Positions 4,818 through 22,770 of a DNA stretch of 41,211 nt are shown one piece after another. Positions within the stretch are counted from its first letter, which is position 1; every line of letters begins with the position of its first letter. The stretch covers positions 1 to 41,211 of IMG/VR virus record IMGVR_UViG_2698536518_000008. The stretch is one strand, 5' to 3'. Source of the stretch: a virus. Taxonomy: Duplodnaviria; Heunggongvirae; Uroviricota; Caudoviricetes. A program made the translations under genes and the position numbers. The notes beneath the pieces are model-generated. The model was given only the letters and a program-made list of their open reading frames with translations. It searched no databases and was not told the DNA's origin.

Positions 4818-4824
4818 GGTTGCC

Positions 4825-7022: not shown

Positions 7023-7437
7023 TGACTTACCCTCTGTCGTTACCCGCTGATGCGGGAGAAATGCTTTGGCGATGTGGTAGGTGGGAGACCCATTTCGACC
7101 CGATTCGGCCTACTTATCTTCGGCAATAGCTCCTCGGGCCTCGCCGCTTTACGTGCGACATATTCCCGTCCATGAACCCTTCACCACATCCCATAACATT
7201 CCCTGTATTGGTCAGCGCCAACTCCCTGCCAGTGTTGCCCGTTCTCACGCCGTTCTCGCTCTCGCGCGGGGATACTCTCTCACCGACCGGATCGCACCCG
7301 GTGATACAGCACGTTTACGTGTAGGGGTCTTAACAGGTCATTGACGCTGTAAATCTGCATGTTGTTAAAAAGCAGGCGACTTGCTGTCCGCCGCTGGCTA
7401 ACTTCGCTCAGCTGTCGATGTTTCGTTTCGATGGGGT

Positions 7438-7520
7438 AAATTTAGCGTGATGCTAAATTATGCGCAATAGCAAAATGCTAAATTGTTGAATGGTTTTATT
7501 TAGCGTATTGATTAATAAGC
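7438..7520. promoter_or_regulatory. OL-like operator cluster / leftward early promoter region
   Basis: Perfect palindrome AATTTAGC-N5-GCTAAATT at 7439-7459 plus two degenerate copies (about 7466-7486 and 7494-7514); same half-site as in the cI-cro intergenic region. Confidence 0.55.
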
Positions 7521-7564
7521 GATTAAAAATTTACAGCGAAGGAATTCGGGACGTAAAAAAGCCC

Positions 7565-7588
7565 GCGCGATGGCGGGCTTGAGGGGTT
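7565..7588 (-). terminator. Intrinsic terminator downstream of cI
   Basis: Plus-strand AAAAAA-GCCCGC-gcgatg-GCGGGC; on minus strand GC-rich hairpin followed by U6, 10 nt after the cI stop codon. Confidence 0.6.
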
Positions 7589-7598
7589 TTGCGTGAGG

Positions 7599-8276: not shown

Positions 8277-8292
8277 ACCTGCATTGTTACTG

Positions 8293-8360
8293 CTTTTAGC
8301 AAAATGATAAATGTGCAAATTGCTAAATGATGCTTGCGTAGTATTTAGCATAACGCTAAA
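8293..8360. promoter_or_regulatory. OR-like operator cluster with divergent promoters (pRM/pR equivalents)
   Basis: TTTAGC-N5-GCTAAA perfect site at 8344-8360 and TTTAGC-N5-GATAAA at 8295-8311, further partial copy around 8316-8338; located between divergent cI and cro starts. Confidence 0.6.
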
Positions 8361-8392
8361 CTCCAAATCAAACGACTCACCCGGAGACACCA

Positions 8393-8626
8393 ATGAGCAC
8401 TGAACTACACCGCTGGCGCAAGGCCGCCACTACCGACGAATGGGCGCAGCTCGCAAAGTTGGCTAACACGACGCCAGGTTACCTGGACCAGATCGCCTAC
8501 GGAAATCGCCGGGCATCTCCAGAAATGGCATCTGCTATCGAGAAAGGCACGAAGAATTTTCACCGCCAGGCTCCGGTCCTAAAAGAAAGCCTGGTATTCG
8601 CATCGCCGCGTGATACTGCGGCCTAA
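8393..8626 (+). CDS. cro: Cro-like HTH regulator
   Basis: 77 aa; first rightward gene after operator cluster; HTH-like segment EWAQLAKLANTTPGYLDQIAYG. Confidence 0.7.
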   Translation: MSTELHRWRKAATTDEWAQLAKLANTTPGYLDQIAYGNRRASPEMASAIEKGTKNFHRQAPVLKESLVFASPRDTAA

Positions 8627-8643
8627 CCACGAAAGGGAAAGCA

Positions 8644-9186
8644 ATGCATTCACTTGCGTATCAACACAATACCGGAATACACCCGGGAGCGATGATAAAC
8701 CGCGCTCAAGCTAAAGCGACGCCGGACCACGAAAAGATCCGCGATGCGGTCCGTGCCTGGTCATCGGCGCTGGATAATCAGGACGTGGTGTCAGCGCTGA
8801 TCATCAACGAATACCGGGAGCAGGGCGGGACCGCCATCAGCTTTCCGGACGACATCAGCCGGGCGCGCCAGAAGCTGTTCCGCTTCCTGGATAACCGCTT
8901 CGACTCTGAGCAGTACCGCGAGAACGTGCGCCAGCTGACGCCCGCAATCATGGCCGTTTTGCCGCTGGAGTATCGCCATCGACTTCTTCCTGAGGACAGT
9001 TTTATGTCCCGCTTAGCTCGACTTGAGAAAGAAACGAGCGAGGCGAAAGTGGCCGTTGCGATGAACGCCCCGCGTCACCAGAAGCTCAAGGAACTCAGTG
9101 AGGGGATTGTAGAGATGTTCCGTGTCGACCCGGATCTGACCGCGCCGCTGATGGCTATGGTCACTTCGATGTTGGGGGTTATGTGA
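8644..9186 (+). CDS. Early regulatory protein (CII-like / YdaT-like by position)
   Basis: 180 aa immediately after cro, SD-like GGGAAAG upstream; assignment by synteny and vague recollection of long CII/YdaT-type proteins, not by firm motif. Confidence 0.4.
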   Translation: MHSLAYQHNTGIHPGAMINRAQAKATPDHEKIRDAVRAWSSALDNQDVVSALIINEYREQGGTAISFPDDISRARQKLFRFLDNRFDSEQYRENVRQLTPAIMAVLPLEYRHRLLPEDSFMSRLARLEKETSEAKVAVAMNAPRHQKLKELSEGIVEMFRVDPDLTAPLMAMVTSMLGVM

Positions 9187-9275
9187 TGGGAAGTTTCAAA
9201 AATGGCGAAAGCCAGTCTGCGCGAACAGAACTGGCCTTCAGATGCAAATCGTGTGCACTCATTGCAGGAGGAATA

Positions 9276-9422
9276 ATGGCAAAAAATCCACGCTATTACC
9301 ATACCGCTGTACATAAAAACATAACCCGCGACCGCTTCATCCGCTCGGTTAACCCGATTGTGGCAGAGAAGATGCGCGCCATCCTGGAAGAAATGAAACG
9401 TAAGGAGAGTGGCCGTGGGTAA
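9276..9422 (+). CDS. Small hypothetical protein (48 aa)
   Basis: Track ORF 9183..9422 likely begins at ATG 9276 (MAKNPRYYHTAVH...) which has a canonical AGGAGG SD 6 nt upstream. Confidence 0.35.
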   Translation: MAKNPRYYHTAVHKNITRDRFIRSVNPIVAEKMRAILEEMKRKESGRG

Positions 9423-10314
9423 CGTATCCAATTTAGCCGAAGCCAGAGAGGCCAGAAGGCTCCAGAAACCGCGCACGAATGACGGTAAGGGGTTTGCCTT
9501 GCTGCACCGTAAAATTATGGATGTGCCGTTCTACAAGGACGCTGAGGCGGCTCATTTATGGGTTCACATGCTCCTGCGTGCTAATCACGAACAGACACTG
9601 GTATCTACTGATGTTGGCGATGTGATCTGCGAGCGCGGAGAGTTCATCACCGGGCGAAACACACTGGCAATGGAAACGGGTTTGACCGCTGATCGCGTTA
9701 AATCCCTTCTCCGTAAATTCCAGAATCTGGGCATGATCACCACCAAATCGAACAACCGTTTTACTGTTCTAAAAGTGGTCAAATATGACGAATATCAGTC
9801 AAATTTTTGTCCAGCAGATGTCCAGCCAGCGTCCAGCCCAAACATAGTCGTACCAATGCCTGCGGAGGTGGAGTGTCCAGCCGATGTCCAGCCAGTGTCC
9901 ACAGATAACAATATATTAAATAACTTACTACCTAACGGTAGTAAGTATGTCGCAAATGACCAGAAACCCGCTGAAGAGAAAAAGTCTCGTTTGTCATGCG
10001 ATGAAGTATGGCAATGCCTGAAAGACGAACTGCCTGAAGCACGGGGATGGAGATGCCTCACTGATGAGCGACGCAATCTGATCCGCACATTCTGGGGTAA
10101 GGCTAATAAGATTGCCCGCAACCTGGACGGCAAGCCGATGGATATGGACGGTTTCAGAAGCTATCTGCGTTACATCGCTCAGAACTGCCGCTGGATGCTT
10201 GAAGACCGACCAGACCAGAAGTCTGGGAAGACCTGGCGCCGTATGAAATTCGATAAGTTCCTGACCGAAAAGCTCTACATCGAAGTGCGCGAGGGGGATC
10301 GTGATGACCGCTGA
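9409..10314 (+). CDS. Replication initiator (lambda O-like) containing the probable origin
   Basis: 301 aa; position before DnaB-type helicase; N-terminal DNA-binding-like region; gene body contains phased iterons, AT-rich tract and inverted repeat (see repeat feature); true start may be GTG 9415. Confidence 0.65.
   Translation: MAVGNVSNLAEAREARRLQKPRTNDGKGFALLHRKIMDVPFYKDAEAAHLWVHMLLRANHEQTLVSTDVGDVICERGEFITGRNTLAMETGLTADRVKSLLRKFQNLGMITTKSNNRFTVLKVVKYDEYQSNFCPADVQPASSPNIVVPMPAEVECPADVQPVSTDNNILNNLLPNGSKYVANDQKPAEEKKSRLSCDEVWQCLKDELPEARGWRCLTDERRNLIRTFWGKANKIARNLDGKPMDMDGFRSYLRYIAQNCRWMLEDRPDQKSGKTWRRMKFDKFLTEKLYIEVREGDRDDR
9809..9946. repeat. Putative replication origin: six 11-bp-phased GTCCAGCC-type iterons + AT-rich tract + 9-bp inverted repeat
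   Basis: GTCCAGC(C/A) copies start at 9809, 9820, 9831, 9875, 9886 and degenerate GTCCACAG at 9897 (all multiples of 11 bp apart); AT-rich 9905-9922; perfect IR ACTTACTAC-N6-GTAGTAAGT at 9923-9946. Confidence 0.6.
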
Positions 10315-11737
10315 TTTCATGGCTGTACCACAAAACCTCGAAGCAGAGCAGAGCGTTATCGGTGGCCTGCTGCTGGATGATGACAACAGCGAGCGAGTCC
10401 AGAAGGTTCTGGCGATGCTCAAGCCTGAATCGTTCTACAGCCGACCTCACCAGCTGATCTTTGCCGAGATGCGCCAGATGTTCCGCGACAACAAGCCAGT
10501 CGATGGTCTGACATTGTTCGACGCGCTCGAAGGCAAAGGGCTCGCGGAGCAGGTAGGTGGCTTTGCTTACCTGGCGGAGATCGCCAAGAACACTCCCAGC
10601 GCTGCAAACATCGTGGCATACGCTGCGTCAGTCCGGGAAGCCGCAATGGAGCGCTACGGTATCAGCCGCCTGACCGAAGCTACTGAGCTGCTGTATTCCC
10701 GCAATGGCATGAGCGCCACGCAGAAGTACGAGGCCATTCAGGGTATTTTCACCCAGCTCGCAGACCATTCAAAAACCGGTAGTCGCCGTGGGTTGCGGTC
10801 GTTCGGCGAGGTTATGGATGACTGGGTAGCAGATCTGGAGAAACGCTTTGACCCTTCAGGCGAACAGCGCGGCATGAGCACCGGCATCCCGTCACTCGAC
10901 CGGCTGCTGGCGCCGAAAGGTCTGGTTAAAGGCTCTCTGTTCGTGATTGGCGCAAGGCCAAAGATGGGCAAGACAACCCTGTACGGTCAGATGGCGATCA
11001 ACTGCGCGGTTCGTGAGAAAAAGCCAGCGCTGATTTTCAGCCTCGAAATGCCGGGCGACCAGATCCTCGAAAAACTGGTTGGTCAGAAGTCTGGAGTTAA
11101 CCCGAGCATTTTTTACATGCCAGCCACGGATGACGCCGATGACCAGTACCAGGGCGATTACGACGGCGACTTTAAGAAGGCGATCGCCACCGCCGGGCGA
11201 TTGAGTGAAATCGACATGCTGTACATCGACGATACTCCTGGCCTGTCACTGGCGCACATCGTTAGCGAAAGCCGCCGAATCAAGCGCGAGAAGGGCTGCG
11301 TAGGAATGATTCTGGTTGACTACCTGACTCTAATGACCGCCGAAAAAGCCGACCGTAATGACCTGGCCTACGGGATGATCACCAAAGGTCTGAAGAATCT
11401 CGCCAAAGAGCTTGGCTGCGTCGTCGTGCTGCTGACCCAGCTCAACCGCGAACTGGAGAAGCGAGTGAATAAACGCCCGTTGCCGAGCGATTCCCGCGAC
11501 ACAGGGCAGATTGAGCAGGACTGCGACTACTGGGTTGGTATCCACCGGGAAGGTGCTTTCGATGACAGCGTGCCGCCGGAAGAAACCGAGTTAATACTGC
11601 GACTCAACCGCCACGGCAGTACCGGAACGGTTTATTGCAATCAGAACAACGGGGCAATTTACGACACAGACCAGCAGGCCGCCGCCGCAGAACGCCGCGG
11701 GCGTGAGCAGCAGCCGAAAAAGAAAGGGGGGTTCTGA
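10301..11737 (+). CDS. Replicative DNA helicase (DnaB family)
   Basis: 478 aa; Walker A GARPKMGKTT, conserved DnaB C-terminal RecA-like domain motifs (LIFSLEM, ILVDYLTLM, VVLLTQLNRELEKR). Confidence 0.9.
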   Translation: MMTADFMAVPQNLEAEQSVIGGLLLDDDNSERVQKVLAMLKPESFYSRPHQLIFAEMRQMFRDNKPVDGLTLFDALEGKGLAEQVGGFAYLAEIAKNTPSAANIVAYAASVREAAMERYGISRLTEATELLYSRNGMSATQKYEAIQGIFTQLADHSKTGSRRGLRSFGEVMDDWVADLEKRFDPSGEQRGMSTGIPSLDRLLAPKGLVKGSLFVIGARPKMGKTTLYGQMAINCAVREKKPALIFSLEMPGDQILEKLVGQKSGVNPSIFYMPATDDADDQYQGDYDGDFKKAIATAGRLSEIDMLYIDDTPGLSLAHIVSESRRIKREKGCVGMILVDYLTLMTAEKADRNDLAYGMITKGLKNLAKELGCVVVLLTQLNRELEKRVNKRPLPSDSRDTGQIEQDCDYWVGIHREGAFDDSVPPEETELILRLNRHGSTGTVYCNQNNGAIYDTDQQAAAAERRGREQQPKKKGGF

Positions 11738-12081
11738 TGACCATAACAATTCGTGGGCAGATTCTTGCAGCCCTGCGTAATAACCCGGGCCTGAATAGTG
11801 CTTTCATTGCCAGGATGATCGGCATGACCACCAAAAAGATTTCCGGCCCGTTAAGTACGTTGTTTGCAGACGGCCTGATCGAGTTCGAAGGCAAGCACGG
11901 ACAGCGGCTTTATCGGCTGACCGATTACGGCATGAAATACGCACCAGAAACAATCCCGGCTATGCCGAAGGGAAATTCGAAGCTGGTGCAGCGTACAGAG
12001 GCAAACGTGATCTGCCAGGAGTGCCGGAAAAGTCCGGCTATGAAGCGAGTATTGATGGTTTGGGGGAGGGTAGGGGTATGA
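11737..12081 (+). CDS. Hypothetical protein, possible winged-helix DNA-binding
   Basis: 114 aa; ATGA overlap with helicase stop; LAALRNNPGLNSAFIARMIGMTTKKISGPLSTL resembles wHTH. Confidence 0.45.
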   Translation: MTITIRGQILAALRNNPGLNSAFIARMIGMTTKKISGPLSTLFADGLIEFEGKHGQRLYRLTDYGMKYAPETIPAMPKGNSKLVQRTEANVICQECRKSPAMKRVLMVWGRVGV

Positions 12082-12356
12082 AAATTTTAAAACTGAGTCA
12101 GCAGGCAACAGTTTCTCGTCCGGTCGATTCGATTATCGGTTGGGAAGAGAAAACAATCTACGAGCCAGTTTTTGTTGTGGCTGAGCATATTGAGTCGTTT
12201 TTGTTTGCTGGAGTAAGCTACATCAAAATGACCTCGGGCGAGAAGATAGTTGTACGAGAAACACCTGAGGAAATTCTCGCGCTGCTTGGCGTCGTTGTTC
12301 AAACGGATAGCCTGAAAACATGGGGTGAAATTGCGCAGAAGGAGGCCGCCCAATGA
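12078..12356 (+). CDS. Hypothetical protein (92 aa from MKILKL)
   Basis: Track ORF 12021..12356; likely start ATG 12078 overlapping upstream stop (ATGA) and preceded by G-rich SD-like GGGGAGGGTAGGGG. Confidence 0.4.
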   Translation: MKILKLSQQATVSRPVDSIIGWEEKTIYEPVFVVAEHIESFLFAGVSYIKMTSGEKIVVRETPEEILALLGVVVQTDSLKTWGEIAQKEAAQ

Positions 12357-12721
12357 GCAACATCGACAAACAGGCGCTGCGCCTAACAGCAGAAAAGGCA
12401 AAAGATAACTTCATGCCGAACTTTATGGTCCCCACTCGGGATGTGCTGGCGCTGCTTGATGAGCTGGAAGCCGCAGAGAAGCGCATAGCAGAACAACGTG
12501 AGTATTACGAAGGCGTTATTGCTGATGGAAGTCGTCGGATAGCAGAGCTGGAGGCGAAGATTGAAACATCTGACAAATTGCAGGATAGCGCGTTTCGCCA
12601 TGGCCTTCAGCATGGTTTTAGCTACGGACAGACAAACGACCAGGCTAGATATGAGCAATGCATAGCAGCATATAGCCCGAAAAAAATCGCCGATGGTATC
12701 ATCACTAAGGTGGGGGGGTAG
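12353..12721 (+). CDS. Ead/Ea22-like protein (N-terminal module)
   Basis: 122 aa; begins MSNIDKQALRLTAEKAKDNF, the hallmark N-terminus of Ea22-like proteins; coiled-coil centre; ends at in-frame TAG. Confidence 0.6.
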   Translation: MSNIDKQALRLTAEKAKDNFMPNFMVPTRDVLALLDELEAAEKRIAEQREYYEGVIADGSRRIAELEAKIETSDKLQDSAFRHGLQHGFSYGQTNDQARYEQCIAAYSPKKIADGIITKVGG

Positions 12722-12724
12722 GGT

Positions 12725-12889
12725 ATGGCTGAATTTACGAAACAGAGCATTATCGAAGACCTGAAAGCCTCGACGCAGAACGCCAGTGGTATGTTTGAAA
12801 TCAGCGAGGACACCATCTGCGCGTTGATGTCCATGCTCACTAGCACAGCACCACAGTTACCGCAGCCAGCGGTGTTATCAGTGTCTTAG
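12725..12889 (+). CDS. Small ORF (54 aa) in same frame as flanking Ea22-like and DUF551 ORFs
   Basis: Hand translation MAEFTKQSIIEDLKASTQNASGMFEISEDTICALMSMLTSTAPQLPQPAVLSVS; separated from each neighbour by a single TAG plus one codon. Confidence 0.3.
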   Translation: MAEFTKQSIIEDLKASTQNASGMFEISEDTICALMSMLTSTAPQLPQPAVLSVS

Positions 12890-12892
12890 GGC

Positions 12893-13261
12893 GTGCTTAA
12901 AAGCCTCTTACCCGATGTTGAGAAGTCCGAGTTCTGGTTTGAGCATAATGGGAAAATCTTTTTTGAAGGTGTGAGGTTTAACAATGCGGTATTTGAAGCC
13001 TGCCGCGCCGCCATGCTTCAGTCGTTCGGTAATTCCGAACAACTCAACTCTCCGGTGATTCAGGATGGTTGGGTGGCTTGCGTTGAGCGGATGCCGGAGA
13101 AAGCTGATGAAGTTTTGTGTGCCAAAGAATTCGATGGTCCAGGTGATTGGCGCCAAAAGGTTGGTTATTACTTAGCGGGGAAATGGACGGTGTATAGCGC
13201 ATCATGGACGCCGACCCACTGGATGCCACTGCCAGCAGCACCGCGGCAGGAGGTGAAGTGA
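12893..13261 (+). CDS. DUF551-like phage protein (C-terminal THWMPLP motif)
   Basis: 122 aa; track start is GTG; C-terminal WTPTHWMPLPAAP resembles the DUF551 signature common in lambdoid nin/ea regions. Confidence 0.55.
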   Translation: MLKSLLPDVEKSEFWFEHNGKIFFEGVRFNNAVFEACRAAMLQSFGNSEQLNSPVIQDGWVACVERMPEKADEVLCAKEFDGPGDWRQKVGYYLAGKWTVYSASWTPTHWMPLPAAPRQEVK

Positions 13262-13299
13262 CGAACAAGATGACGAGAGTTACCATAGATATAAATCAA

Positions 13300-13320
13300 G
13301 GCCCTTAGGGGCCTTTTATT
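13300..13320 (+). terminator. Short intrinsic terminator
   Basis: GGCCC-ttag-GGGCC hairpin followed by TTTTATT. Confidence 0.45.
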
Positions 13321-13354
13321 CTATGATAAACGGACTTTGTTTGAGAGTGACGCC

Positions 13355-13681
13355 ATGAAGCCCAAGAAGCTAAATGCTGAGCAGCAATACAAATTAGACC
13401 TTGAATTGGTCAAGAAGAAGCCTGCGAACCGGACCGAGGCAAAAGCCCATTTGGCCGCACAGTTACGGATCAGCAAGTACAAGACGCAGACCTCTTCCAA
13501 AATCCGCGTAGGCAGTTTTAAGGGGCGGAAGAAGGTACATTTCAGTAAGGCGGAACAAGCAGCCAGGGCAGCACTAAATAAAGCAAATGCCATTAGATTT
13601 TCCGAAGGGGAGGTCGAGTCCGTCGATACGGATAGAATCTCAGAAAGTAACAAACGCTGGCGCGGGAGAACTGCTGACTAA
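13355..13681 (+). CDS. Hypothetical basic protein
   Basis: Track ORF 13337..13681 uses TTG; more likely ATG 13355 ([11 protein letters not shown]...); lysine-rich. Confidence 0.4.
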
Positions 13682-13935
13682 TGTCTGACTGGAATATTGC
13701 TGCAAAGCCGCAGGAAGAACGCGACAAGGTTAATGTTGACCTGGCAGCCTCCGGCGTGGCCTACAAAGAGCGCCTGAATATGCCGGTTATCGCCGAGCAG
13801 GTAGCTCGTGAGCAACCAGAGCATCTACGAGAGTATTTCATGGATCGCGTGCGGCACTATCGCGAGCAGAGCGTTGCATTGCCTAAGGCATCTGATCCTC
13901 GCTACATTGAAATGACTGAGCAAAATGCAAAATAA
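13681..13935 (+). CDS. Hypothetical protein
   Basis: 84 aa; TAATG overlap with upstream ORF. Confidence 0.4.
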
Positions 13936-14212
13936 ATTTCAGGAGATTCAAATGGAAAATAGCATGAGCATCACAACGATTCTTGAAAGAGAAAGGGAGC
14001 TTGATGATCTTGTTAAGGTGTGCCTCGATGAGCTTGAGGTGATTGACATCCATGGACAGGTTTACTCAATTCCTCTTTCCCACCTAACGAACGCAGAGCA
14101 GGTGGTACATTGGGTCTGGAAGATTGCTGAGAGAGGTGATTTCGCCATGGATGTTGTTCGTAAATTTACTGAAGTTGCGTCCCATCATGTGGGGTTTGAC
14201 GCTAAAAAATAA
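13925..14212 (+). CDS. Hypothetical protein
   Basis: 95 aa; overlaps preceding ORF by 11 nt. Confidence 0.4.
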
Positions 14213-14282
14213 ATCGCCAAGGACCGATTTAATAGCTATACACATGTTTTACATTCCGCTCGCATCTTAACCAAATCTTTCT

Positions 14283-14291
14283 TGGTATAAT
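14283..14291 (+). promoter_or_regulatory. Extended -10 promoter element (TGgTATAAT)
   Basis: TGG-TATAAT at 14283-14291 in AT-rich intergenic region about 40 nt upstream of ORF 14331; weak -35. Confidence 0.4.
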
Positions 14292-14330
14292 GATTTTTTA
14301 CAGGCGAATGACGTGTGAGGTCCGGGATTT

Positions 14331-14528
14331 ATGACTTGTGAAGTATGTAACAAACAACCCCTTGGACGAAGGGACCCGCCTCTTCCATGCATGGTCTTGC
14401 AAGGCGATAAATCCGTTAACTTCAGCCATCACGGACGCGAAGCAAACGAGCGTTATTACAAATGCTCGGAATGCGGTCATGAGTGGATGAGAGAGACAGG
14501 AAATTGCGGCGAAGGCTGGATTCCTTAA
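14331..14528 (+). CDS. Small Cys-rich (zinc-ribbon-like) protein
   Basis: 65 aa with C-x2-C (CEVC) ... C-x2-C (CSEC) ... C pattern; own extended -10 promoter upstream. Confidence 0.4.
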   Translation: MTCEVCNKQPLGRRDPPLPCMVLQGDKSVNFSHHGREANERYYKCSECGHEWMRETGNCGEGWIP

Positions 14529-14620
14529 CTATATATTGTCGCTATTCGCAAATTGATTTTCTCAAATCATCCCGCCATAATTAAGTCGCAGTCGGCCTGA
14601 ACACCCGATTGTGACTTCTG

Positions 14621-14644
14621 CGCATTTAAGGGGACTTAAATGCG
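14621..14644 (+). promoter_or_regulatory. Perfect 10-bp stem hairpin with GGGA loop upstream of ninB
   Basis: CGCATTTAAG-ggga-CTTAAATGCG; no U-tract, so a regulatory hairpin or factor-binding palindrome rather than a canonical terminator. Confidence 0.4.
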
Positions 14645-14731
14645 ACCACAATATGAACTTCTCACCTTGTCACAGATGCAGAAATGCACCTGCGATTTTC
14701 TGTATTCTGCGTTACCTCTCGGAGGTGGCGT

Positions 14732-15169
14732 ATGAAACAGCCTGTTTTCTACCTCCGCGACGAACGCGTTCGCGATAACCTCATCGACTACATCAGGAAG
14801 CTGCCTGTTAACGACGCTCTGCCGCTCGTGGTGAAGTTTTCTGAGGCTGACCGCACTCTCGCCCAAAACGACCTCTTCCACGCTCTCTGTGGCGATACAG
14901 CGAAGCAATTGCAATGGGCTGGCAAGTCGCGCGACCTCGCTTCATGGAAAGTCCTGTATGTCTCAGGCCATGCCATTGCCACCGGTAAGCCTGGTGAAGT
15001 GGTGCCGGGTCTGGAAGGGGAGTTCTGCGCCATCCGGGAAAGCACTGCGAAGATGGGCATCCGTCGCATGACCAGTCTCATCGAATACAGCCAGGCATTT
15101 GCTGTGCAAAACGGCGTGCAACTCCGTGAAGTTCGCTACTCAGGTGATTACTTCGGGAGGGTTGCGTAA
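14732..15169 (+). CDS. ninB: NinB (Orf-family recombination mediator)
   Basis: Track ORF 14684..15169; likely start ATG 14732 after GGAGG SD; motifs RTLAQNDLFHALCGD and WAGKSRDLASWKVLY match lambda NinB pattern. Confidence 0.75.
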   Translation: MKQPVFYLRDERVRDNLIDYIRKLPVNDALPLVVKFSEADRTLAQNDLFHALCGDTAKQLQWAGKSRDLASWKVLYVSGHAIATGKPGEVVPGLEGEFCAIRESTAKMGIRRMTSLIEYSQAFAVQNGVQLREVRYSGDYFGRVA

Positions 15170-15339
15170 TGGCTAGCCCTCTCGCTCGCATCATCACCAA
15201 CGAAATCTACCGGGTCCGGACACGCACTAAGCGAAAGCCTGAACTCAAGCCATCCGAAATCCCATCACTGCTCGGCTACACCGCGCGACTGACCCAGGTG
15301 AAATGGGATCGCCTGAAAGCGCGGAGGTCACATGGCTAA
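15169..15339 (+). CDS. ninE: NinE-like protein (56 aa), not in supplied ORF track
   Basis: Hand translation [56 protein letters not shown] resembles lambda NinE (basic KRTRNKPKP..W..RW.RRR pattern); TAATG overlap with ninB. Confidence 0.5.
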   Translation: MASPLARIITNEIYRVRTRTKRKPELKPSEIPSLLGYTARLTQVKWDRLKARRSHG

Positions 15340-15622
15340 TTTATGCAAAGCGGCACGCGGCCGCGATTGTCAGGCGCGGATCCCCGGCGTATGCAACGGC
15401 AATCCTGAAACCTCAGTACTGGCTCACATACGTCTTGCTGGTCTATGCGGGACCGGAATCAAGCCGCCTGACCTGATCGCCACCATCGCATGCAGCAGTT
15501 GCCACGACGAGATTGATCGCCGCACCCGTCTGGTCGATGCGGAATTTGCAAAGGAGTGCGCGCTGGAAGGCATGGCTCGCACGCAGGTCATCTGGCTTAA
15601 AGAGGGGCTCGTGAAAGCATGA
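15332..15622 (+). CDS. DUF1364-like Cys-rich nin-region protein
   Basis: 96 aa; conserved cysteines (CKAARGRDC...CNGNPE...CSSCHDEID); position between NinE-like and RusA. Confidence 0.45.
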
Positions 15623-15981
15623 ATGAATACCGCATTAGCCTCCCGTGGCCGCCGAGCAACAACCGCTACTACCGGCATAACCGCGGGCGCACGCACATCA
15701 GCACAGAGGGGCAGGCGTACCGCGACAGTGTCGCCAGAATCATCAAAGACTCAATGCTGGATATCGGCCTGGCTACACCCGTGAAAATCCGCATTGAGTG
15801 CCACATGCCGGATCGCCGCCGCCGTGACCTGGACAACCTACAAAAGGCCGCATTCGACGCGCTGACGAAAGCCGGTTTCTGGATGGATGACGTACAGGTC
15901 GTCGATTACCGCGTGGTGAAAATGCCTATCGTCAAAGGCGGTCGACTTGAACTGACCATTACTGAACTGGAGTGCGCATGA
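15619..15981 (+). CDS. rusA: RusA Holliday-junction resolvase
   Basis: 120 aa; [13 protein letters not shown]-terminus and [22 protein letters not shown] with catalytic Asp residues typical of RusA. Confidence 0.85.
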
Positions 15982-16124
15982 CACTCGAATCCTACTTTGC
16001 TGATCATCTTCGTCTGCGATGGACTCGGTTACGCATCTATCGTCACCCAGGTTCATTTGCTACGGACTACCGAATTTTACGCAATTACATCAGCCGCTAT
16101 AAACCATCAGGAGCAGAAGCATGA
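15978..16124 (+). CDS. Small hypothetical protein (48 aa), not in supplied ORF track
   Basis: Hand translation [48 protein letters not shown]; ATGA overlaps at both ends (rusA stop and Q start). Confidence 0.3.
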
Positions 16125-16885
16125 ATCTCGAAAACACAGTGAAATACCACTTCGCGAAGTCAACGATGATTAGCGACGCTCCACGCGCGACAGCATCTGA
16201 CTCATTAACCGGCACTGACATTATGGCGGCGATCGGAATGACACAGAGCCGTGCTGCTCTCGGGTTCAGTGCATTCCTAGGAAAGATGGATATCAGTGAT
16301 TACGATCGCGAGCGAGCGATTGATTTGCTGACAAAATATGCAATTGAGCACTGCGATAAGGTTGCTGCCTTACGCAAGCTTGAGAGTGATGTTAAGCCAA
16401 AGGTAATGCAAGTTCTCGCAACTTTCGCCTTTGCTGATTACTCCCGGAGTGCGGCCAGCACCAGAACGTGCGACTGCTGCCATGGAAATAAGTTTGTCGA
16501 AGCTGAAGTAATGACGATGAAGCATATCGGACAGCCACACCTTAGCGAAAAAAGAGAGATGGTTAAGGTGCTTTGCCACAAATGCAAAGGGAAGGGTGCT
16601 CTGACCAACGCATGCCAGTGCAATGGCAAAGGAACAGTATTAGACAAAGAGAAAACTATTCTACAGCGCGGCGTTCCTGCATATAAAACCTGTACGCGCT
16701 GCAATGGGCGTGGTTATGCCAGATTGCTACCTGATAGCGTCCGTAAATACATCTGCGTAACGGTGATGGATATACCTGAAACCACGTGGCGCAGGTCTTA
16801 CAAGGATTTTTTCGAAAGTCTGGTAGGTGAGTGCATCAAGCAGGAAGAGTACGCAAACCAGATGTTGAACAAAGTCACGCGATAG
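16121..16885 (+). CDS. Q-like late-gene antiterminator (Cys-rich zinc-binding)
   Basis: 254 aa; four C-x2-C-like motifs (CDCC, CHKC, CQCNGKG, CTRCNGRG); last gene before a long non-coding region that precedes the lysis and structural genes. Confidence 0.6.
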   Translation: MNLENTVKYHFAKSTMISDAPRATASDSLTGTDIMAAIGMTQSRAALGFSAFLGKMDISDYDRERAIDLLTKYAIEHCDKVAALRKLESDVKPKVMQVLATFAFADYSRSAASTRTCDCCHGNKFVEAEVMTMKHIGQPHLSEKREMVKVLCHKCKGKGALTNACQCNGKGTVLDKEKTILQRGVPAYKTCTRCNGRGYARLLPDSVRKYICVTVMDIPETTWRRSYKDFFESLVGECIKQEEYANQMLNKVTR

Positions 16886-16927
16886 TGAATGTTTTCTATG
16901 AAATAGGATTTATCTAGAAAACTACAC

Positions 16928-16956
16928 TTTACAAAGTGGCGATTTTTGTTTAATCT
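16928..16956 (+). promoter_or_regulatory. Candidate late promoter (pR'-like)
   Basis: TTTACA-N17-TAATCT about 45 nt downstream of the Q stop codon. Confidence 0.35.
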
Positions 16957-17138
16957 CGATTCTAACGATGGGTTACTGACTTCGTTGGCGGTGAGGCAAA
17001 AGAGGCGGCTCTCACCACTGAACCGCCTAGTTGGTATCTTCGGCGCATCGTCTGGTACTCCAACCGTAGAGAGCTGAGAGGTTCTCCAAGACCTGAGTAA
17101 TCAGGCCGCCATCTGGATGATGGCGTTGTCATTCAATA

Positions 17139-17196
17139 GCCCGGCCCCGTTCGCAGACAATAGTTAGTATCTGCATAATGGCTCCGGGCTTTTTTA
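17139..17196 (+). terminator. Candidate tR'-like terminator (end of a possible 6S-like short late leader RNA)
   Basis: Compound hairpin GCCCGG...GCAGA-N12-TCTGC...CCGGGC followed by TTTTTTAT. Confidence 0.4.
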
Positions 17197-17410
17197 TATC
17201 TGCACAACAGGTAAGGGCATTTTCAGAGTTCGACTCTCTGGGTGGGTATTCGTGCCGACACGCGAGACGTGAGTGCTCTTTCCGTTGTGGTGAATTGTAA
17301 AGTCAGAGGACGTGATGTTAGGCGTAATCTGGAATTAGCCACCAGACACCACTATCTCAAATACCTACCAGGACCATAAGAGCGAAAGCTCAACGCACTA
17401 CCCTCATCTT

Positions 17411-17434
17411 GCCAGCATCGCCGCTGGCTTTTTT
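17411..17434 (+). terminator. Intrinsic terminator
   Basis: GCCAGC-atcgcc-GCTGGC followed by TTTTTT. Confidence 0.55.
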
Positions 17435-17511
17435 AAAGCGCATTACCACCAAGAACCAGACCCAACCAACTCATTGCTGAATATCTGTGGCTACGGTGAT
17501 TAGTGCGCTTC

Positions 17512-17539
17512 AAAAAAGAAAACCCAGCACATGGCTGGG
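17512..17539 (-). terminator. Minus-strand intrinsic terminator with no upstream minus-strand CDS
   Basis: Plus-strand AAAAAAGAAAA-CCCAGC-acatg-GCTGGG; U-tract follows the hairpin only on the minus strand. Confidence 0.45.
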
Positions 17540-17774
17540 CTTCGTGAAGATGGGCGGCAAGAGAACTGAATACTCGTCACCCGGAATGGTGCCTACGTAC
17601 CTGCGAAAGTCGAATTGATGTCTGGTTGCAGATGGCAGAAGCCATGCTGTACTTACCAATGTGTGATGTATTCGATAAAAAAGCTGATCGATTCCGGTTG
17701 CAAAGTTGCGCGGGGATTGCTTGAATTCAGCTATGCTCGCGAAGCTACACCCGCAGCGATAGATAAAAATTAAT

Positions 17775-17803
17775 AACCCGCCGATGAGCGGGTTTTCTTT
17801 TTT
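17775..17803. terminator. Bidirectional-looking intrinsic terminator upstream of the kinase cassette
   Basis: AACCCGC-cgatga-GCGGGTT followed by TTCTTTTTT and preceded by A-rich run. Confidence 0.55.
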
Positions 17804-17825
17804 GAGGTGTATTTAAGCTGCTGCA

Positions 17826-17893
17826 GGGTGTAGATAGATTTCTTTGGAAAATTAAACCTATTGATATGGTGTGGTTTTTCTTTTGGGTGTAGA
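17826..17893. repeat. Direct repeats GGGTGTAGAT upstream of kinase gene (candidate regulator sites/promoter region)
   Basis: GGGTGTAGAT at 17826-17835 and 17884-17893, related GGTGTAT at 17804-17810 and GGTGTGG at 17868; AT-rich surroundings with TTGATA hexamer at 17861. Confidence 0.35.
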
Positions 17894-17925
17894 TTTTGCT
17901 CATGAGAATTTTATGTGAGTAAGCT

Positions 17926-18708
17926 ATGGAACCCAGGGGTAATTACCTTATAAAACCATTGAGAGATCTAGGTTTTGGTGCTTTTGGTCGTGTGGAAAAG
18001 GTTGAGGTATATAACACCGATAGCCATCTTTGTGGTGAGTATGCAAGGAAAGTTCTTTCAGTTAATCCTGCGTTATTAAATGAATATTTTAGTGTAGATG
18101 ACTGGAAGCGTCGGTTTAAGCGTGAAGTCGACTACCAAGCCAAGTGCAATCATGATCATGTTGTAAGAATTTGCATACATCATTTAAGCATAGAAAACCC
18201 TTGGTTTGTGATGGAGTTGGCAGAAACAGACCTAAGAAGCGAACTAAAAGCGGGCGTTCTTTCTGATGATGAAAAGCTGTTAGCCCTGAAGATGGTGTTT
18301 GAAGGCGTTAAGTATATCCATGACGCTGGGTTGCTTCACAGGGATCTGAAACCTGAGAATATCCTCAAGTTTGAAGGAGGCTGTTACAAAATTTCCGATT
18401 TCGGCCTAATCAAAAGTATGGATTCGAAAGCCCAATCTGATTTTTTGTCAGGTGTACTTCAAAACAAAAAAATGGGTATTGGCACTGCTAAGTACATGTC
18501 TGACGAGGCTAAACGCGGAGTATATACACAGAAATCAGATATTTACGCGCTAGGTGTTATTACTAGTGAAATGAATCTATCTCATATTGACGGTATAACG
18601 ACATTAATCGATAAATCAGCGGCATTTACGCCTCGTTCAAGGTACGATTCTGTCACTGAGATGATAGACATTCTTGATGATATTGTTGCAGCAAGGAGAG
18701 GCAAATGA
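17926..18708 (+). CDS. Hanks-type (eukaryotic-like) Ser/Thr protein kinase, catalytic domain only
   Basis: 260 aa; Gly-loop GFGAFG (aa 16-21), catalytic Lys in YARKV (K42), HRDLKPEN catalytic loop (aa 138-145, nt 18337-18360), DFG (158-160), SDIYALG subdomain IX; AT-rich codon usage unlike flanking phage genes. Confidence 0.85.
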   Translation: MEPRGNYLIKPLRDLGFGAFGRVEKVEVYNTDSHLCGEYARKVLSVNPALLNEYFSVDDWKRRFKREVDYQAKCNHDHVVRICIHHLSIENPWFVMELAETDLRSELKAGVLSDDEKLLALKMVFEGVKYIHDAGLLHRDLKPENILKFEGGCYKISDFGLIKSMDSKAQSDFLSGVLQNKKMGIGTAKYMSDEAKRGVYTQKSDIYALGVITSEMNLSHIDGITTLIDKSAAFTPRSRYDSVTEMIDILDDIVAARRGK

Positions 18709-19496
18709 TTGAGTTGTTGAGCTGTGGTGCATTTTCATGCCCCAAAGATCATGGTCGTGAAAACCAAGATGCGTTACTACTCCCGCAACAATGTGATGAT
18801 GGCTTCATTTTTGCTATTGCTGATGGTGTCGGGTCTTATGCTGGTGCTAAAGAAGCAGCGCAAGCTGCAGTAGACTATGTCGCAACTCATAAACTGAAAG
18901 CCAGTTCTGATCCTGATGCGATACTTAGTGGTGCAAAAGACAAAATATCTGAACTATCTCAGTTCGATTCAGAGAAGCGCAAGGCCGCAACAACATTATC
19001 CTACTGTGTTGTACATGGTGAGTTACTTAATGTAATCCATGTAGGCGATACTCGGGTGTATGTAAAAATTGATAACAAATTAAAACTACTAACGAAAGAT
19101 CACTCACAGCATCAAGAGTTGCTCGACGATGGGTTATATACGAAAAGGGAATTGGAAGACTTACCAGGAAAGAACATGCTTACTGCAGCTATTTCTAAAG
19201 TCCTGCCAATAAAATTTCAGCATATTTCGTTACCCCTGTCAGATTTGATGGACCATGACGGTGTTGTTTCTCTTTTTCTGATGTCCGATGGAGCCCATCA
19301 CTTCTGGGAACGCCGCCCGCGTTTTTCTCCCAATACATTGAAGAATGCTACTAACTTTTCAACCAATCTTTTTAAGCGGATACAGCGCGCTGGACCAACT
19401 GACGATCATTCACTGATTGCTGTGAATTTAAAGATAAGCCTGAAAAATGAAGAATCACTTAACCCATTTAAACTACATAAGCCATTGGGTAATTGA
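18705..19496 (+). CDS. PP2C/PPM-family Ser/Thr protein phosphatase
   Basis: 263 aa; metal-binding motifs FAIADGVGSYAGA, HVGDTRVY, KDHSQ and LMSDGAHH typical of PPM phosphatases; ATGA overlap with kinase stop. Confidence 0.8.
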   Translation: MIELLSCGAFSCPKDHGRENQDALLLPQQCDDGFIFAIADGVGSYAGAKEAAQAAVDYVATHKLKASSDPDAILSGAKDKISELSQFDSEKRKAATTLSYCVVHGELLNVIHVGDTRVYVKIDNKLKLLTKDHSQHQELLDDGLYTKRELEDLPGKNMLTAAISKVLPIKFQHISLPLSDLMDHDGVVSLFLMSDGAHHFWERRPRFSPNTLKNATNFSTNLFKRIQRAGPTDDHSLIAVNLKISLKNEESLNPFKLHKPLGN

Positions 19497-20054: not shown

Positions 20055-20574
20055 GCTGAGCGCAGCGGTCGTTGGTTTGATTCTTGCCGGGGCATCCGCG
20101 CCAGTTATTCTCGATCAGTTTCTGGATGAGAAGGAGGGTAATAGCGAGCAGGCGTATCGAGACGGCGGTGGGCTCTGGACGATTTGCCGTGGCGCCACGA
20201 TGGTTGATGGCAAGCCGGTAGTTCAGGGTATGAAGTTGTCAGCTGAGAAATGTGCCCAGGTGAATGCCATTGAACGCGACAAGGCGCTGGCGTGGGTTGA
20301 CCGAAATATCAAAGTACCACTGACCGAACCACAGAAAGCCGGGATCGCATCTTTCTGCCCCTATAACATCGGCCCCGGGAAATGTTTCCCGTCTACGTTC
20401 TATAAGCGAATTAATGCTGGCGACCGTAAAGGCGCATGTGAAGCTATTCGCTGGTGGATTAAAGATGGTGGCCGCGACTGTCGTCTGACCAAAGGCCAGA
20501 AAAATGGGTGCTATGGTCAGGTAGAGCGACGAGACCAGGAAAGCGCGTTAACGTGCTGGGGGATAGACCAGTGA
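20026..20574 (+). CDS. SAR endolysin (phage lysozyme, R21-like)
   Basis: 182 aa; N-terminal signal-anchor-release segment LSAAVVGLILAGASAPVI followed by lysozyme E..D..T catalytic region; overall resemblance to phage 21 R; start may be ATG 20032. Confidence 0.85.
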   Translation: MGMPPKLRNKLSAAVVGLILAGASAPVILDQFLDEKEGNSEQAYRDGGGLWTICRGATMVDGKPVVQGMKLSAEKCAQVNAIERDKALAWVDRNIKVPLTEPQKAGIASFCPYNIGPGKCFPSTFYKRINAGDRKGACEAIRWWIKDGGRDCRLTKGQKNGCYGQVERRDQESALTCWGIDQ

Positions 20575-21098
20575 GGGCTTACTGGAAGCCGCTGGCAGAA
20601 ATACTGCTGGTGGCTTTTTTGTTATGCGCGGTCGCGTACTGGTGTTATTCACGCGGGTATCAGGAGGCGGACTCATCCTGGAAATTGCAGTGGGCACAAC
20701 GTGACCTTACTGATGCGACCACTACATTGCAGCGTGAAGTAACCGAAAGAGCAGAAGAGCAGCGCCGCCAGCGGGCCGTAGATGAAGAACGAGAGAAAGC
20801 CGATGAAGAACTGGCAAAAGTACAGGCTGATGCTAACGCTGCTAAGCGTGCTCGCAGTGGGTTGCAACAGCAGCTCGCCGAAATACAACGGCAGCTCGCA
20901 ACAAGTGAAACAGGCAGAATTTCCGCAATTGCAGCAACAAGCCAGGCAAAAGCCGAGGCCGGAATATTGCTCGCCCAGTTGCTCAGCGAAGCTGACGATC
21001 TGGCGGGAAAATTCGCAAAAGAGGCTGATGAGCGTTATGTCGCCGGAAATACCTGTGAGCGCACCTACGACAAAGTAATAAGGCGCCATGATGAATAA
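20508..21098 (+). CDS. Rz: Rz-like i-spanin
   Basis: N-terminal TM helix LAEILLVAFLLCAVAYWCY then long coiled-coil periplasmic domain; possible real start GTG 20571 overlapping endolysin stop. Confidence 0.7.
   Translation: MLWSGRATRPGKRVNVLGDRPVRAYWKPLAEILLVAFLLCAVAYWCYSRGYQEADSSWKLQWAQRDLTDATTTLQREVTERAEEQRRQRAVDEEREKADEELAKVQADANAAKRARSGLQQQLAEIQRQLATSETGRISAIAATSQAKAEAGILLAQLLSEADDLAGKFAKEADERYVAGNTCERTYDKVIRRHDE
20803..21078 (+). CDS. Rz1: Rz1-like o-spanin lipoprotein embedded in Rz (+1 frame)
   Basis: ORF wholly inside Rz in another frame; lipobox LAVGC after hydrophobic signal (LMLTLLSVLAVGC); track ORF 20782..21078, start choice uncertain. Confidence 0.5.
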   Translation: MKNWQKYRLMLTLLSVLAVGCNSSSPKYNGSSQQVKQAEFPQLQQQARQKPRPEYCSPSCSAKLTIWRENSQKRLMSVMSPEIPVSAPTTK

Positions 21099-21099
21099 T

Positions 21100-21115
21100 G
21101 CCCGCATTTGCGGGC
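21100..21115. terminator. Hairpin between convergent Rz and minus-strand moron gene
   Basis: GCCCGC-attt-GCGGGC flanked by A/T-rich sequence on both sides. Confidence 0.45.
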
Positions 21116-21123
21116 ATTAACGT

Positions 21124-21684
21124 TTAACGATTTTCTGGATGCACTCTCGCGTTGAGTGTATCGATAAAATCATGTTTAGTAATGCCCACATTGTGAACCC
21201 AATTCTTAGCTCTGGCAGGAAGGAAAACTTCAAGCATACGTTGGTAAATTGCAACAGAGGGCATGTGAGAGTTCCGGGTGAGATCGTCTTTGCCGCTAAA
21301 CCGTCCCATTCGTTTCAATAAACTACCAATCAAAAGAAACTTTGATTCGTTGTTACCGTCAAATCCGGGGAATGTGAGTGATAATTTCTCATCGAAATTA
21401 CGAATAGATTTGGCAACCTCTGCTTTGTCTTCCGCACTGAATCGTTCGTATGTGTATTGGAGAATGTCATACATATCATAGGTATCAACGAAAAGCTGGA
21501 CTTCCCAGGGGGTCTCCTCTTCTTCATCTTGAAGGCCTGGGTATTCCCAGGATAAAGCCCAGTAGTTATCCGTGCTCACTGCTTCGTCAATGAGGTCAGG
21601 ATCAAATGAGTTTTCAATTTCTAATGCTCGGTGAATATCACTGAGCATCATGATCTGTAGTTTTTCTTGCTGTGAGTATTTCAT
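21124..21684 (-). CDS. Opposite-strand AT-rich moron protein, tentatively YfbU-like (UPF0304)
   Basis: 186 aa; AT-rich; only minus-strand gene in the late region; segments TYDMYDIL, LTFPGFDG and YQRMLEVF recall E. coli YfbU as I remember it (unverified). Confidence 0.45.
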   Translation of the reverse strand: MKYSQQEKLQIMMLSDIHRALEIENSFDPDLIDEAVSTDNYWALSWEYPGLQDEEEETPWEVQLFVDTYDMYDILQYTYERFSAEDKAEVAKSIRNFDEKLSLTFPGFDGNNESKFLLIGSLLKRMGRFSGKDDLTRNSHMPSVAIYQRMLEVFLPARAKNWVHNVGITKHDFIDTLNARVHPENR

Positions 21685-21771
21685 TCTAAATTCCTTGAAT
21701 TAATAGAGCGTTGATACTGCGTTATCAAAGATACATCTGATTAAATAGTTTTCAAGAAACTGAGGGTTAAA

Positions 21772-22770
21772 ATGGCAAAACCGGACTGGGGATCACTGCA
21801 ACACCAGTTCCTCGCCGAGCATGCTAAATCCGGTATTTCCCCCAAAGACTGGTGTGAAGCGCGGGGGCTGAATTACACATCTGCGCGGCGCTATATCAAA
21901 AAGCCAACTGCGCAAAAAAATGCGCAGAAGAAAGTGCGCAATGCGCAGACTGAACAAGCCCCTACCACTGCGCAGTATGAGCAATCCTCAACTGATGCGC
22001 AGACCGATATACAGGAAAGTGCGCAACCCTTCAACCTGCGCAATTACGGCCTTAACGATATGCAGATCAGGTTTGTCGAAGAGTATCTTCTCGATCTGAA
22101 CAGGACCGCTGCATACAAGCGAGCTGGCTATAAAGGTGAAGGAAATACGGCTTACGTTAACGCCTCGCGCCTGCTAAGAAATGCTAAGGTCAGCCAGGCA
22201 ATCCGCGACGCGCTGGACGAACGCTCGCGAAGAGTGAAGATAACGCAGGACGAAGTGTTGAAATGGTGGTGGGACATTGCGACGGCAGACGCTACGCAAC
22301 TTACTGAACATCACCGCGGCTGTTGCCGTTACTGCTGGGGACTCGGTTTTAACTACCAGTGGCGCGATGCAGTTGAGTTTGAGGAAGCGGAAGAAAAGGT
22401 TAAGGGGAAGGAAGGTGCCATGCAGCCTAAGGATACGGGCGGCTACGGCTACGACGGCACACTGGACCCGAACCCGGATTGCCCCCGCTGCAATGGCGTT
22501 GGTCTGAGCCGTCCTGTTTTCCACGATACACGAGATTTGAAGGGCGCAGAACGCCGCCTTTTTGCCGGGATTAAAGAGGGCAAATTTGGCCTTGAAATGA
22601 TCACCCGCAATCAGGATGAGGCTATGAAGATGGTCGCACAACACCTCGGCATGCTGAAAACCAAAACTGAGTTAAGCGGCCCGAATGGTGAGCCCATACA
22701 GCATAATCACACAGTAAGCGCGGAGGATCTGACTGATGAGCAGCTCGCCGCAATTATCGCTGGTAAGTAA
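21772..22770 (+). CDS. Terminase small subunit
   Basis: 332 aa; N-terminal HTH-like region, gene immediately upstream of and overlapping terminase large subunit. Confidence 0.65.
   Translation: MAKPDWGSLQHQFLAEHAKSGISPKDWCEARGLNYTSARRYIKKPTAQKNAQKKVRNAQTEQAPTTAQYEQSSTDAQTDIQESAQPFNLRNYGLNDMQIRFVEEYLLDLNRTAAYKRAGYKGEGNTAYVNASRLLRNAKVSQAIRDALDERSRRVKITQDEVLKWWWDIATADATQLTEHHRGCCRYCWGLGFNYQWRDAVEFEEAEEKVKGKEGAMQPKDTGGYGYDGTLDPNPDCPRCNGVGLSRPVFHDTRDLKGAERRLFAGIKEGKFGLEMITRNQDEAMKMVAQHLGMLKTKTELSGPNGEPIQHNHTVSAEDLTDEQLAAIIAGK

Follow-up and report, generated by a model that had tools for sequence, protein, structure and literature searches.

A mobile YfbU-family gene in the spanin-terminase slot of a lambdoid prophage: a candidate defence cargo cassette

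The stretch of DNA analysed here (IMG/VR virus record IMGVR_UViG_2698536518_000008; 41,211 nucleotides, referred to below as the window) is a lambdoid prophage, the late part of which runs from lysis genes through terminase and head genes to contractile-tail genes. Between the lysis and terminase genes, on the minus strand, lies an open reading frame (ORF) at positions 21124-21684, and membership of its product in the YfbU family (UPF0304) is proven. As far as its sequence features indicate, the gene is a self-contained single-gene cargo cassette, or moron, placed antisense in a variable slot between a spanin gene and the gene for the terminase small subunit (terS). The YfbU assignment is not new: the identical protein, WP_001767237.1, is already named "YfbU family protein" by RefSeq in two E. 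coli genomes, where the annotation of the two prophages gives the same coordinates for the ORF, and the gene is a rare cargo of a known type. The subfamily behind it is undescribed and moderately interesting. A role as defence or lysogenic-conversion cargo is plausible by analogy with Kamadhenu, a phage-resistance gene from a Lactococcus plasmid; that the window gene is specifically a lysogen-expressed, Kamadhenu-like defence cargo gene is a tentative reading, to which we give a little less than an even chance.

A YfbU-fold protein distinct from chromosomal YfbU

The Pfam model for this family (PF03887, YfbU/UPF0304) matches the window protein with 46.5 bits (E 5.5e-12), the gathering score being 25; residues 1-158 align with positions 1-150 of the 166-position profile, and this is the sole Pfam domain of the 186-residue protein. 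In a profile-profile comparison with hhalign, the alignment of the close clade of relatives (see below) matched E. coli YfbU over the full length (98.8%, E 8.3e-17, 159 columns). An AlphaFold2 model built from 42 homologues (predicted local distance difference test score 89, predicted template modelling score 0.83) has the all-helical two-domain fold of the YfbU structures 1WPB and 4LR3, and the protein, which has no signal peptide, is predicted to be soluble and helical. Thus, a resemblance to YfbU/UPF0304 that the original prediction had noted tentatively and proposed to check with a hidden Markov model (HMM) is borne out by HMM, profile-profile, and fold comparison. In the PHROGs database, the profile matched end to end is that of phrog_6084, to which no function is assigned there, and a viral structure library gave one weak, unnamed match.

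Chromosomal YfbU and the window protein share the fold, the length class, and a common core (G-F-D...E...N...Y-x-R-M), whereas their sequences are about 20% identical. Crystals of canonical YfbU contain 16 chains. The motifs of the window protein are F105-P-G-F-D-G-N-N-E113, N138-S-H140, and Y147-x-R-M150. Residues G107, F108, D109, E113, N138, and M150 are invariant across the phage, plasmid, and canonical members in our alignment. In contrast, "GFDGNN(E)" and N-S-H are specific to the subfamily: canonical YfbU has GFDAAT and NAQ at these places. Every mobile-element copy examined keeps N-S-H as well as a G-F-D that leads into an N/D-rich stretch. Together, D109, N111, N112, E113, N138, S139, H140, Y147, and R149 make up a polar cluster that is partly absent from chromosomal YfbU. 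A HEPN-like Rx4-6H motif was considered and rejected, as the arginine before N-S-H is not conserved. A profile search of 1.84 billion representative sequences yielded 2,959 clusters (50% identity) at E <= 1e-3, and 1,954 at E <= 1e-10.

The window protein is not an orthologue of the housekeeping YfbU. The NCBIfam equivalog model for the chromosomal protein (NF003936/PRK05445) gives it 35 bits, below the cut-off of 90, and the genomic context differs as well: chromosomal yfbU is a core gene that stands in the order ackA, yfbV-yfbU-hxpA (as seen in locus L166), whereas the window gene is a patchy accessory gene in a prophage spanin/terS slot. The function of chromosomal YfbU is still obscure two decades after its structure, and the cassette in the window may inform on it; the subfamily motif (D109, N111, N112, E113, N138, S139, H140) offers direct targets for mutation.

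A cassette with its own predicted signals

The original prediction placed the ORF on the minus strand between the Rz/Rz1 lysis genes and the terminase, which ORF calls and RefSeq confirm, and described it as AT-rich, which also holds: its GC content is 42.3% (42.5% at third codon positions), compared with 53% in both flanks. At third codon positions, terS and the terminase large subunit gene, terL, have 57.5% and 63.3% GC. The base composition of the ORF differs from that of the adjacent phage genes, as is typical of a moron. Its start codon and Shine-Dalgarno sequence are conserved among relatives, most of which have AAGGA or AGGAG at the matching aligned position. The ORF has no co-oriented partner gene in the window, and no known RNA families or tRNAs were found around it. 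It is not, as had been stated, the only minus-strand gene of the late operon: a DUF4236 gene (37104-37637, 43.6% GC; Pfam E 4.9e-19) is on the minus strand too. That gene lies inside the baseplate/tail block and is annotated in RefSeq relatives; its protein had no PADLOC match.

A GC-rich hairpin separates the convergent stop codons of Rz and the YfbU-like gene (Table 1). Such a hairpin had been proposed at 21100-21115; it is real and larger than that, with stem arms at 21096-21105 and 21110-21119. On either strand its folding free energy is -17.4 to -17.8 kcal/mol (z scores -4.6/-5.2), and none of 200 shuffled sequences folded equally well. The minus-strand sequence directly after it is TTATTCAT. 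A simple terminator scan gave no call on this hairpin. The most fitting reading is that of a terminator belonging to the cassette, because most relatives have a stem-loop of other sequence 3' of the stop codon, which is GC-rich and in several of them carries a T-tail. The hairpin also travels with the gene, since similarity to two divergent carriers (L102 and L105) begins at 21097 and is limited to 21097-21685, that is, to hairpin and ORF. A Q-modified late transcript would need to read through it.

On the other side of the gene, a consensus scan predicts a sigma-70-type promoter in the intergenic region before terS, and its -10 element stops 43 nt upstream of the ATG. When matches of at least 8 of 12 positions were counted, relatives had a promoter-like site that ends 33-49 nt from the start codon in 17 of their 22 distinct upstream regions, compared with 3.0 +/- 1.6 in shuffled sequences; other distance windows gave 0-5. 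This recurrent position is supportive of a promoter belonging to the cassette, without proving it. Just downstream of the -10 element lies a palindrome, TTGATA-N6-TATCAA (21711-21728), which is present as a single copy in the window. As a shared repressor or operator site it was rejected (one occurrence in the window against 1.4 expected with up to two mismatches), and visual comparison showed no likeness to a LexA box or to a good Fur box.

Distribution, selection, and a recurrent slot

The YfbU-like gene is present in 2 of 5,426 complete E. coli genomes, low-identity settings included. The E. coli lysogens VE-F5 and NADC1036 have the identical cassette. Its close relatives come from Salmonella, Klebsiella, Hafnia, Yersinia, Pantoea, Proteus, and others, and form a close clade across Enterobacterales; in addition, 80 IMG/VR viral contigs carry relatives with 32-100% identity. 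Megablast against GenBank phages gave no nucleotide match to the gene, and only four phage records match the window protein by tblastn. For pairs with a synonymous divergence (dS) of 0.15-0.27, the ratio of nonsynonymous to synonymous divergence (dN/dS) is 0.05-0.14, which points to strong purifying selection.

To describe the surroundings of these relatives, we used, on each side, the closest ORF with 110 residues or more, counted identical proteins once, and assigned families by a PHROGs scan; genes in the fetched loci were called by a crude longest-ORF script, with which small neighbouring ORFs and some starts are unreliable. Among 50 distinct neighbours beyond the gene start, terS families phrog_51/2606 account for 14 and phrog_1206 for 7, 9 are HNH endonucleases, which precede terminases, and 6 are the glycosyltransferase described below. 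Beyond the stop codon there are 62 distinct neighbours, which include Rz-like spanins of phrog_312 (11), phrog_13 (7), and phrog_214 (6), and, in 4 cases, an integrase at the prophage end. About three quarters of those neighbours are on the opposite strand to the YfbU-like gene, and in the close clade nearly all are. The same slot is used by a more distant, independent homologue (28% identity), which lies antisense in it in Escherichia phage vB_EcoS-689R5, a phage with another head module. A 39%-identical homologue is found at the tail-module end of a P2-like Yersinia phage. In six viral contigs (L118-L120, L131, L135, and L137), a large glycosyltransferase in the PHROGs category "moron" (phrog_1579, E 4e-235) is encoded next to the YfbU-like gene on its upstream side, so that several cargo genes can share the slot. 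In four loci with a 95%-identical allele (L092, L094, L095, and L096), there is an extra co-oriented ORF of 178 residues (approximately 5324-5857), 140 nt upstream, with no function assigned.

The limits of the cassette can be traced by comparison of carriers. L083 and L084 have an identical allele next to a different terS, and homology ends about 19 nt into terS (approximately position 21790). Part of the flanks is shared by 529 E. coli genomes, and only the two carriers match across the Rz-terS junction; the 5,426 E. coli genomes yielded no close relative in which this junction is empty, the flanks being too mosaic. The idea of the original prediction that this gene is a moron is supported by its composition, the limits of homology, the hairpins, the recurrent promoter-like site, and the recurrence of the slot with unrelated spanin and terminase families.

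The closest parallel among known morons is bor of phage lambda and genes like it, which are likewise antisense to the late operon in the Rz/terminase slot, deviate in base composition, and are presumably expressed in the lysogen; they have their own promoter and terminator, as is predicted for the window gene. Bor is an outer-membrane lipoprotein affecting serum resistance, and it has no sequence or structural relation to the window protein. The moron concept is that of Hendrix and colleagues. Should the cassette described here protect lysogens, the spanin/terminase junction of lambdoid phages would be an added slot in which to look for defence cargo.

Likeness to Kamadhenu and a possible role in defence

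The function of the YfbU family had been called unknown in the original prediction, but this is out of date, as Kamadhenu provides an experimental precedent (PMC11381338). Kamadhenu is a single gene for a YfbU-domain protein of 180 residues on Lactococcus plasmid pUCCL624_130 (BioProject PRJNA1086404), and it makes its host strongly resistant to skunaviruses, with a phenotype like that of abortive infection (Grafakou et al. 2024, PMC11381338). Every escape mutation falls on the same residue of the phage's Sak-like single-strand annealing protein (SSAP) (Mosterd et al. 2025, PMC12184496), whereas phage DNA replication, transcription, and translation are not blocked (PMC13064643). Like the window gene, Kamadhenu is one gene of about 180 codons, consists essentially of one PF03887 domain, and is borne by a mobile element, a plasmid rather than a prophage; its best structural match is 1WPB, and its plasmid also carries other defence genes.

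If the window gene is Kamadhenu-like defence cargo, a weak sigma-70 promoter of its own would keep it transcribed in the lysogen regardless of the repression of the late operon. During lytic growth, as the anatomy of the region suggests, the Q-antiterminated late transcript would run antisense through the gene and damp its expression. The product, by model and fold match an all-helical two-domain protein of a mobile YfbU subfamily with a polar cluster, could then act as a single-protein abortive-infection or superinfection-exclusion factor that shields the lysogen from other phages. A possible trigger, by analogy with the Kamadhenu escape mutants, would be the recombination (SSAP) activity of the invader. 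Confirmation of a protective effect would mean that YfbU-domain defence, so far a matter of Lactococcus plasmids, is also encoded by E. coli and Salmonella prophages; if the cassette proves inactive against phages, it is one more annotated accessory gene without known function.

A number of observations weigh against such a role. The link to Kamadhenu is at the level of the Pfam family and was made by description rather than by sequence. A tblastn search of plasmids with the window protein found no Lactococcus plasmid even at E 10, and neither tblastn of plasmids with the E. coli YfbU core nor a protein search with a homologue from a Bacillus plasmid returned a Lactococcus sequence; Kamadhenu and the window protein may be functionally different subfamilies. 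The window protein matched no family of PADLOC-DB v2.0.0 (2023), a release that predates Kamadhenu, at E values up to 1. The resident phage has a Bet-like SSAP of its own, which a system triggered by SSAPs would have to tolerate. The founding member of the family, chromosomal YfbU, is a conserved core gene adjoining yfbV and not a defence gene. The promoter match in the window (9 of 12 positions) is by itself not above chance in a 1-kb region, and the upstream regions in which the site recurs are related, not independent. Finally, the neighbours of chromosomal members of the subfamily are mostly housekeeping genes: a defence-type gene lies within two genes in about one fifth to one quarter of 35 loci, which is a raw count without a background rate.

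Subfamily members in other genomic contexts

In three betaproteobacterial loci (Paraburkholderia, Methylophilus, and Hylemonella), the YfbU-like gene is directly upstream of ApeA on the same strand, in an apparent two-gene operon (Table 1). ApeA is a HEPN-type single-gene defence system (PADLOC PDLC02157); in these loci it has 607 residues (PADLOC E 3.5e-97), and in L023 the YfbU stop codon abuts the ApeA start. In contrast, the window has no ApeA gene. Altogether, PADLOC matches among 130 neighbours of the 35 chromosomal loci comprised ApeA (3), mad2 (2), AbiEi/AbiEii, a GajB-like helicase, and a methyltransferase. Plasmids add further cases: the YfbU-like gene adjoins an "Abi family protein" gene on an 8-kb Acinetobacter plasmid and RelE/ParE on a Xanthomonas plasmid. 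The P. aeruginosa plasmid pXM8-3 (L164, 3,430 bp) has three annotated genes, for a 430-residue hypothetical protein, a tyrosine recombinase, and a YfbU-family protein, the last of which is its only apparent cargo. This context points the same way as a defence role, though not overwhelmingly.

Two other arrangements recur. In 14 of approximately 37 genome loci, the YfbU domain is fused to an N-terminal ribbon-helix-helix (RHH)-like extension of about 50 residues with a CopG-type look ("ERFEMRLD...VDxWR...PSRAEAVRRLI"), which Pfam RHH_1 matches below threshold (E 0.006-0.03). No recurrent partner gene was seen among those loci. The window protein begins directly with the YfbU domain; having neither the RHH extension nor a partner gene, it does not look like a type II antitoxin. 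In nine chromosomal loci and one plasmid, a gene for a protein of about 166 residues with a hydrophobic N-terminal helix is followed by the YfbU-like gene within 2-20 nt. This cassette is found in Gammaproteobacteria and Betaproteobacteria of marine and soil origin and on a Raoultella plasmid. The 166-residue protein belongs to no Pfam family and has no detectable homology to YfbV; the pair nevertheless resembles the canonical yfbV-yfbU arrangement of L166.

The ApeA operons, RHH fusions, and membrane-partner cassettes are natural experiments on how the YfbU domain is wired. They bring to mind a broader and rather doubtful reading: that the "GFDGNN/NSH" YfbU proteins are a large, undescribed mobile family built on a modular anti-phage sensor or effector domain, with the window gene as a superinfection-immunity member that answers the recombination machinery of the invader. 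The domain would then work in several modes: alone, like Kamadhenu, in prophage and small-plasmid copies; fused to an RHH domain that makes it autoregulated; together with a small membrane protein, in the manner of yfbV-yfbU; or coupled to the HEPN effector ApeA.

Alternative explanations

Among the alternatives to defence cargo, the one that survives best, unlikely as we think it is, holds that the window gene is a lysogenic-conversion gene that alters host physiology through host YfbU and its neighbour YfbV, for example in a death pathway linked to DNA damage; it would then change the survival or induction of lysogens. The window protein does have the fold and core motifs of host YfbU over its full length, and chromosomal yfbU has been reported as a "death gene": its deletion made cells die less after DNA damage, through a pathway that depends on MazF (PMC2646832). 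The position of canonical yfbU directly downstream of yfbV, a membrane-protein gene, and the nine chromosomal loci and one plasmid with a hydrophobic-N-terminus protein encoded upstream hint at a two-part logic. However, at about 20% identity and with GFDGNN/NSH in place of GFDAAT/NAQ, mixed oligomers of the two proteins are not obviously likely. The spread of the subfamily over many taxa and tiny plasmids also speaks against this explanation, and the sole experimental phenotype of a mobile YfbU-domain protein is phage resistance (PMC11381338).

It is less probable still that the protein is a counter-defence or antitoxin-like factor that neutralises effectors such as the HEPN protein ApeA, in which case the solo prophage copies would be captured "orphan antitoxins". 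An RHH fusion is the classic architecture of type II antitoxins, and one of the fusions found here lies beside a RelE/ParE toxin gene; the placement of YfbU-like genes immediately upstream of ApeA, with no gap in L023, fits this idea as well. Yet the pairing with ApeA, described as a single-gene system, was seen in only 3 of 37 loci, no toxin family recurs beside the RHH fusions, and their RHH matches in Pfam are sub-threshold. Kamadhenu, moreover, confers resistance alone (PMC11381338). If the phage needed a counter-defence gene for its own lytic growth, one would look for it in sense orientation in an early operon rather than antisense within the late one.

The strong recurrence of the spanin/terminase placement in many phages could also mean that the gene is tied to this position by a task in the phage life cycle, for example as a modulator of lysis timing or DNA packaging. 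We regard this as very improbable: the gene is antisense to both the lysis and packaging modules, the spanin and terminase families are unrelated between carriers, most related prophages lack the gene (it is in two of the E. coli genomes, whereas 529 share part of the flanks), and other members reside on plasmids, at non-phage chromosomal sites, beside integrases, and, in a P2-like phage, where the tail module ends. That the gene is a decaying, non-functional remnant, as its rarity in E. coli and the lack of an assigned function in PHROGs might suggest, has next to no chance, given an intact full-length ORF with an end-to-end profile match, a conserved start and Shine-Dalgarno sequence, and a confident fold prediction, and dN/dS of 0.05-0.14 rejects a decaying pseudogene.

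Coordinates and other features of the prophage

Table 1. Coordinates of features in the window and of related loci elsewhere (L and P numbers are our identifiers for loci and proteins)
Feature	Position	Strand	Details
YfbU-like coding sequence	21124..21684	-	186 aa, ATG start, intact; mobile-element subfamily of the YfbU family
GC-rich hairpin	21096-21119		Between convergent stops of Rz (21096-21098) and YfbU-like gene (21124-21126); 10-bp stem, 4-nt loop
Shine-Dalgarno AAGGA	21692..21696	-	7 nt before ATG at 21684; read from sequence
terS-side intergenic region	21685..21771	divergent	87 bp, 30% GC; between ATG of YfbU-like gene and terS start
Predicted sigma-70-type promoter	21728..21755	-	TTGAAA 21755-21750, 16-nt spacer, TATCTT 21733-21728; consensus scan
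Rz-like i-spanin (DUF2514)	20571-21098	+	Left flank, end of lysis cassette; stop codon 21096-21098; close homologue matches phrog_312 "Rz-like spanin" (E 1.8e-56)
Rz1-type lipoprotein ORF	20782-21078		Embedded in Rz-like gene; lipobox LAVGC
Terminase small subunit (terS)	21772-22770	+	Right flank, first packaging gene; phrog_51 (E 2e-71)
Integrase	1-1194		Early region
Bet-like annealing protein	3768-4529		Early region
CI-like repressor	7599-8393		
Q-like antiterminator	16121-16885		
YfbU-like + ApeA, L020	8001-10445	same strand	Gap 63 nt; apparent two-gene operon
YfbU-like + ApeA, L023	8001-10370	same strand	Gap 0 nt; apparent two-gene operon
YfbU-like + ApeA, L038	8001-10397	same strand	Gap ~24 nt; apparent two-gene operon
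RHH-fusion loci			L015, L021, L024, L028, L029, L032, L033, L036, L037, L039, L040, L041, L042, L054; proteins P0077, P0096, P0106, P0187
166-aa partner, chromosomal loci			L007, L009, L010, L011, L017, L018, L025, L026, L030 (gene -1)
166-aa partner, L004	4486-4998		Raoultella IncFII plasmid

In addition to the products listed in Table 1, the window encodes a DNA methyltransferase, an exonuclease, and CII-, O-, and DnaB-like proteins. Two E. coli prophages (L001 and L168) have the same late region and the same integration site next to kch as the window. Its early region (1-17000), with the genes for the Bet-like protein, exonuclease, and methyltransferase by the integrase gene, is unlike the RecE/RecT early region of these two prophages, a difference typical of lambdoid mosaicism.

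Downstream of the Q-like gene, a stretch of about 1 kb (16886-17925) has no ORF of at least 90 residues and no tRNA; the late promoter and its terminator would be expected to lie here. It is followed on the plus strand, before the holin gene, by an AT-rich pair of cargo genes (17926-19496, 40.8% GC). The first encodes a Ser/Thr protein kinase (17926-18708; Pfam Pkinase E 3e-32) with PADLOC matches to mad6 (E 2e-36), PD-T4-6 (E 4e-31), and Stk2, and the second, which overlaps it, a PP2C phosphatase (18705-19496; Pfam PP2C_2 E 6e-15). The pair is a candidate kinase-based defence module, and in the two E. coli reference prophages that share the late region its place is taken by two hypothetical genes and a DNA methyltransferase gene.

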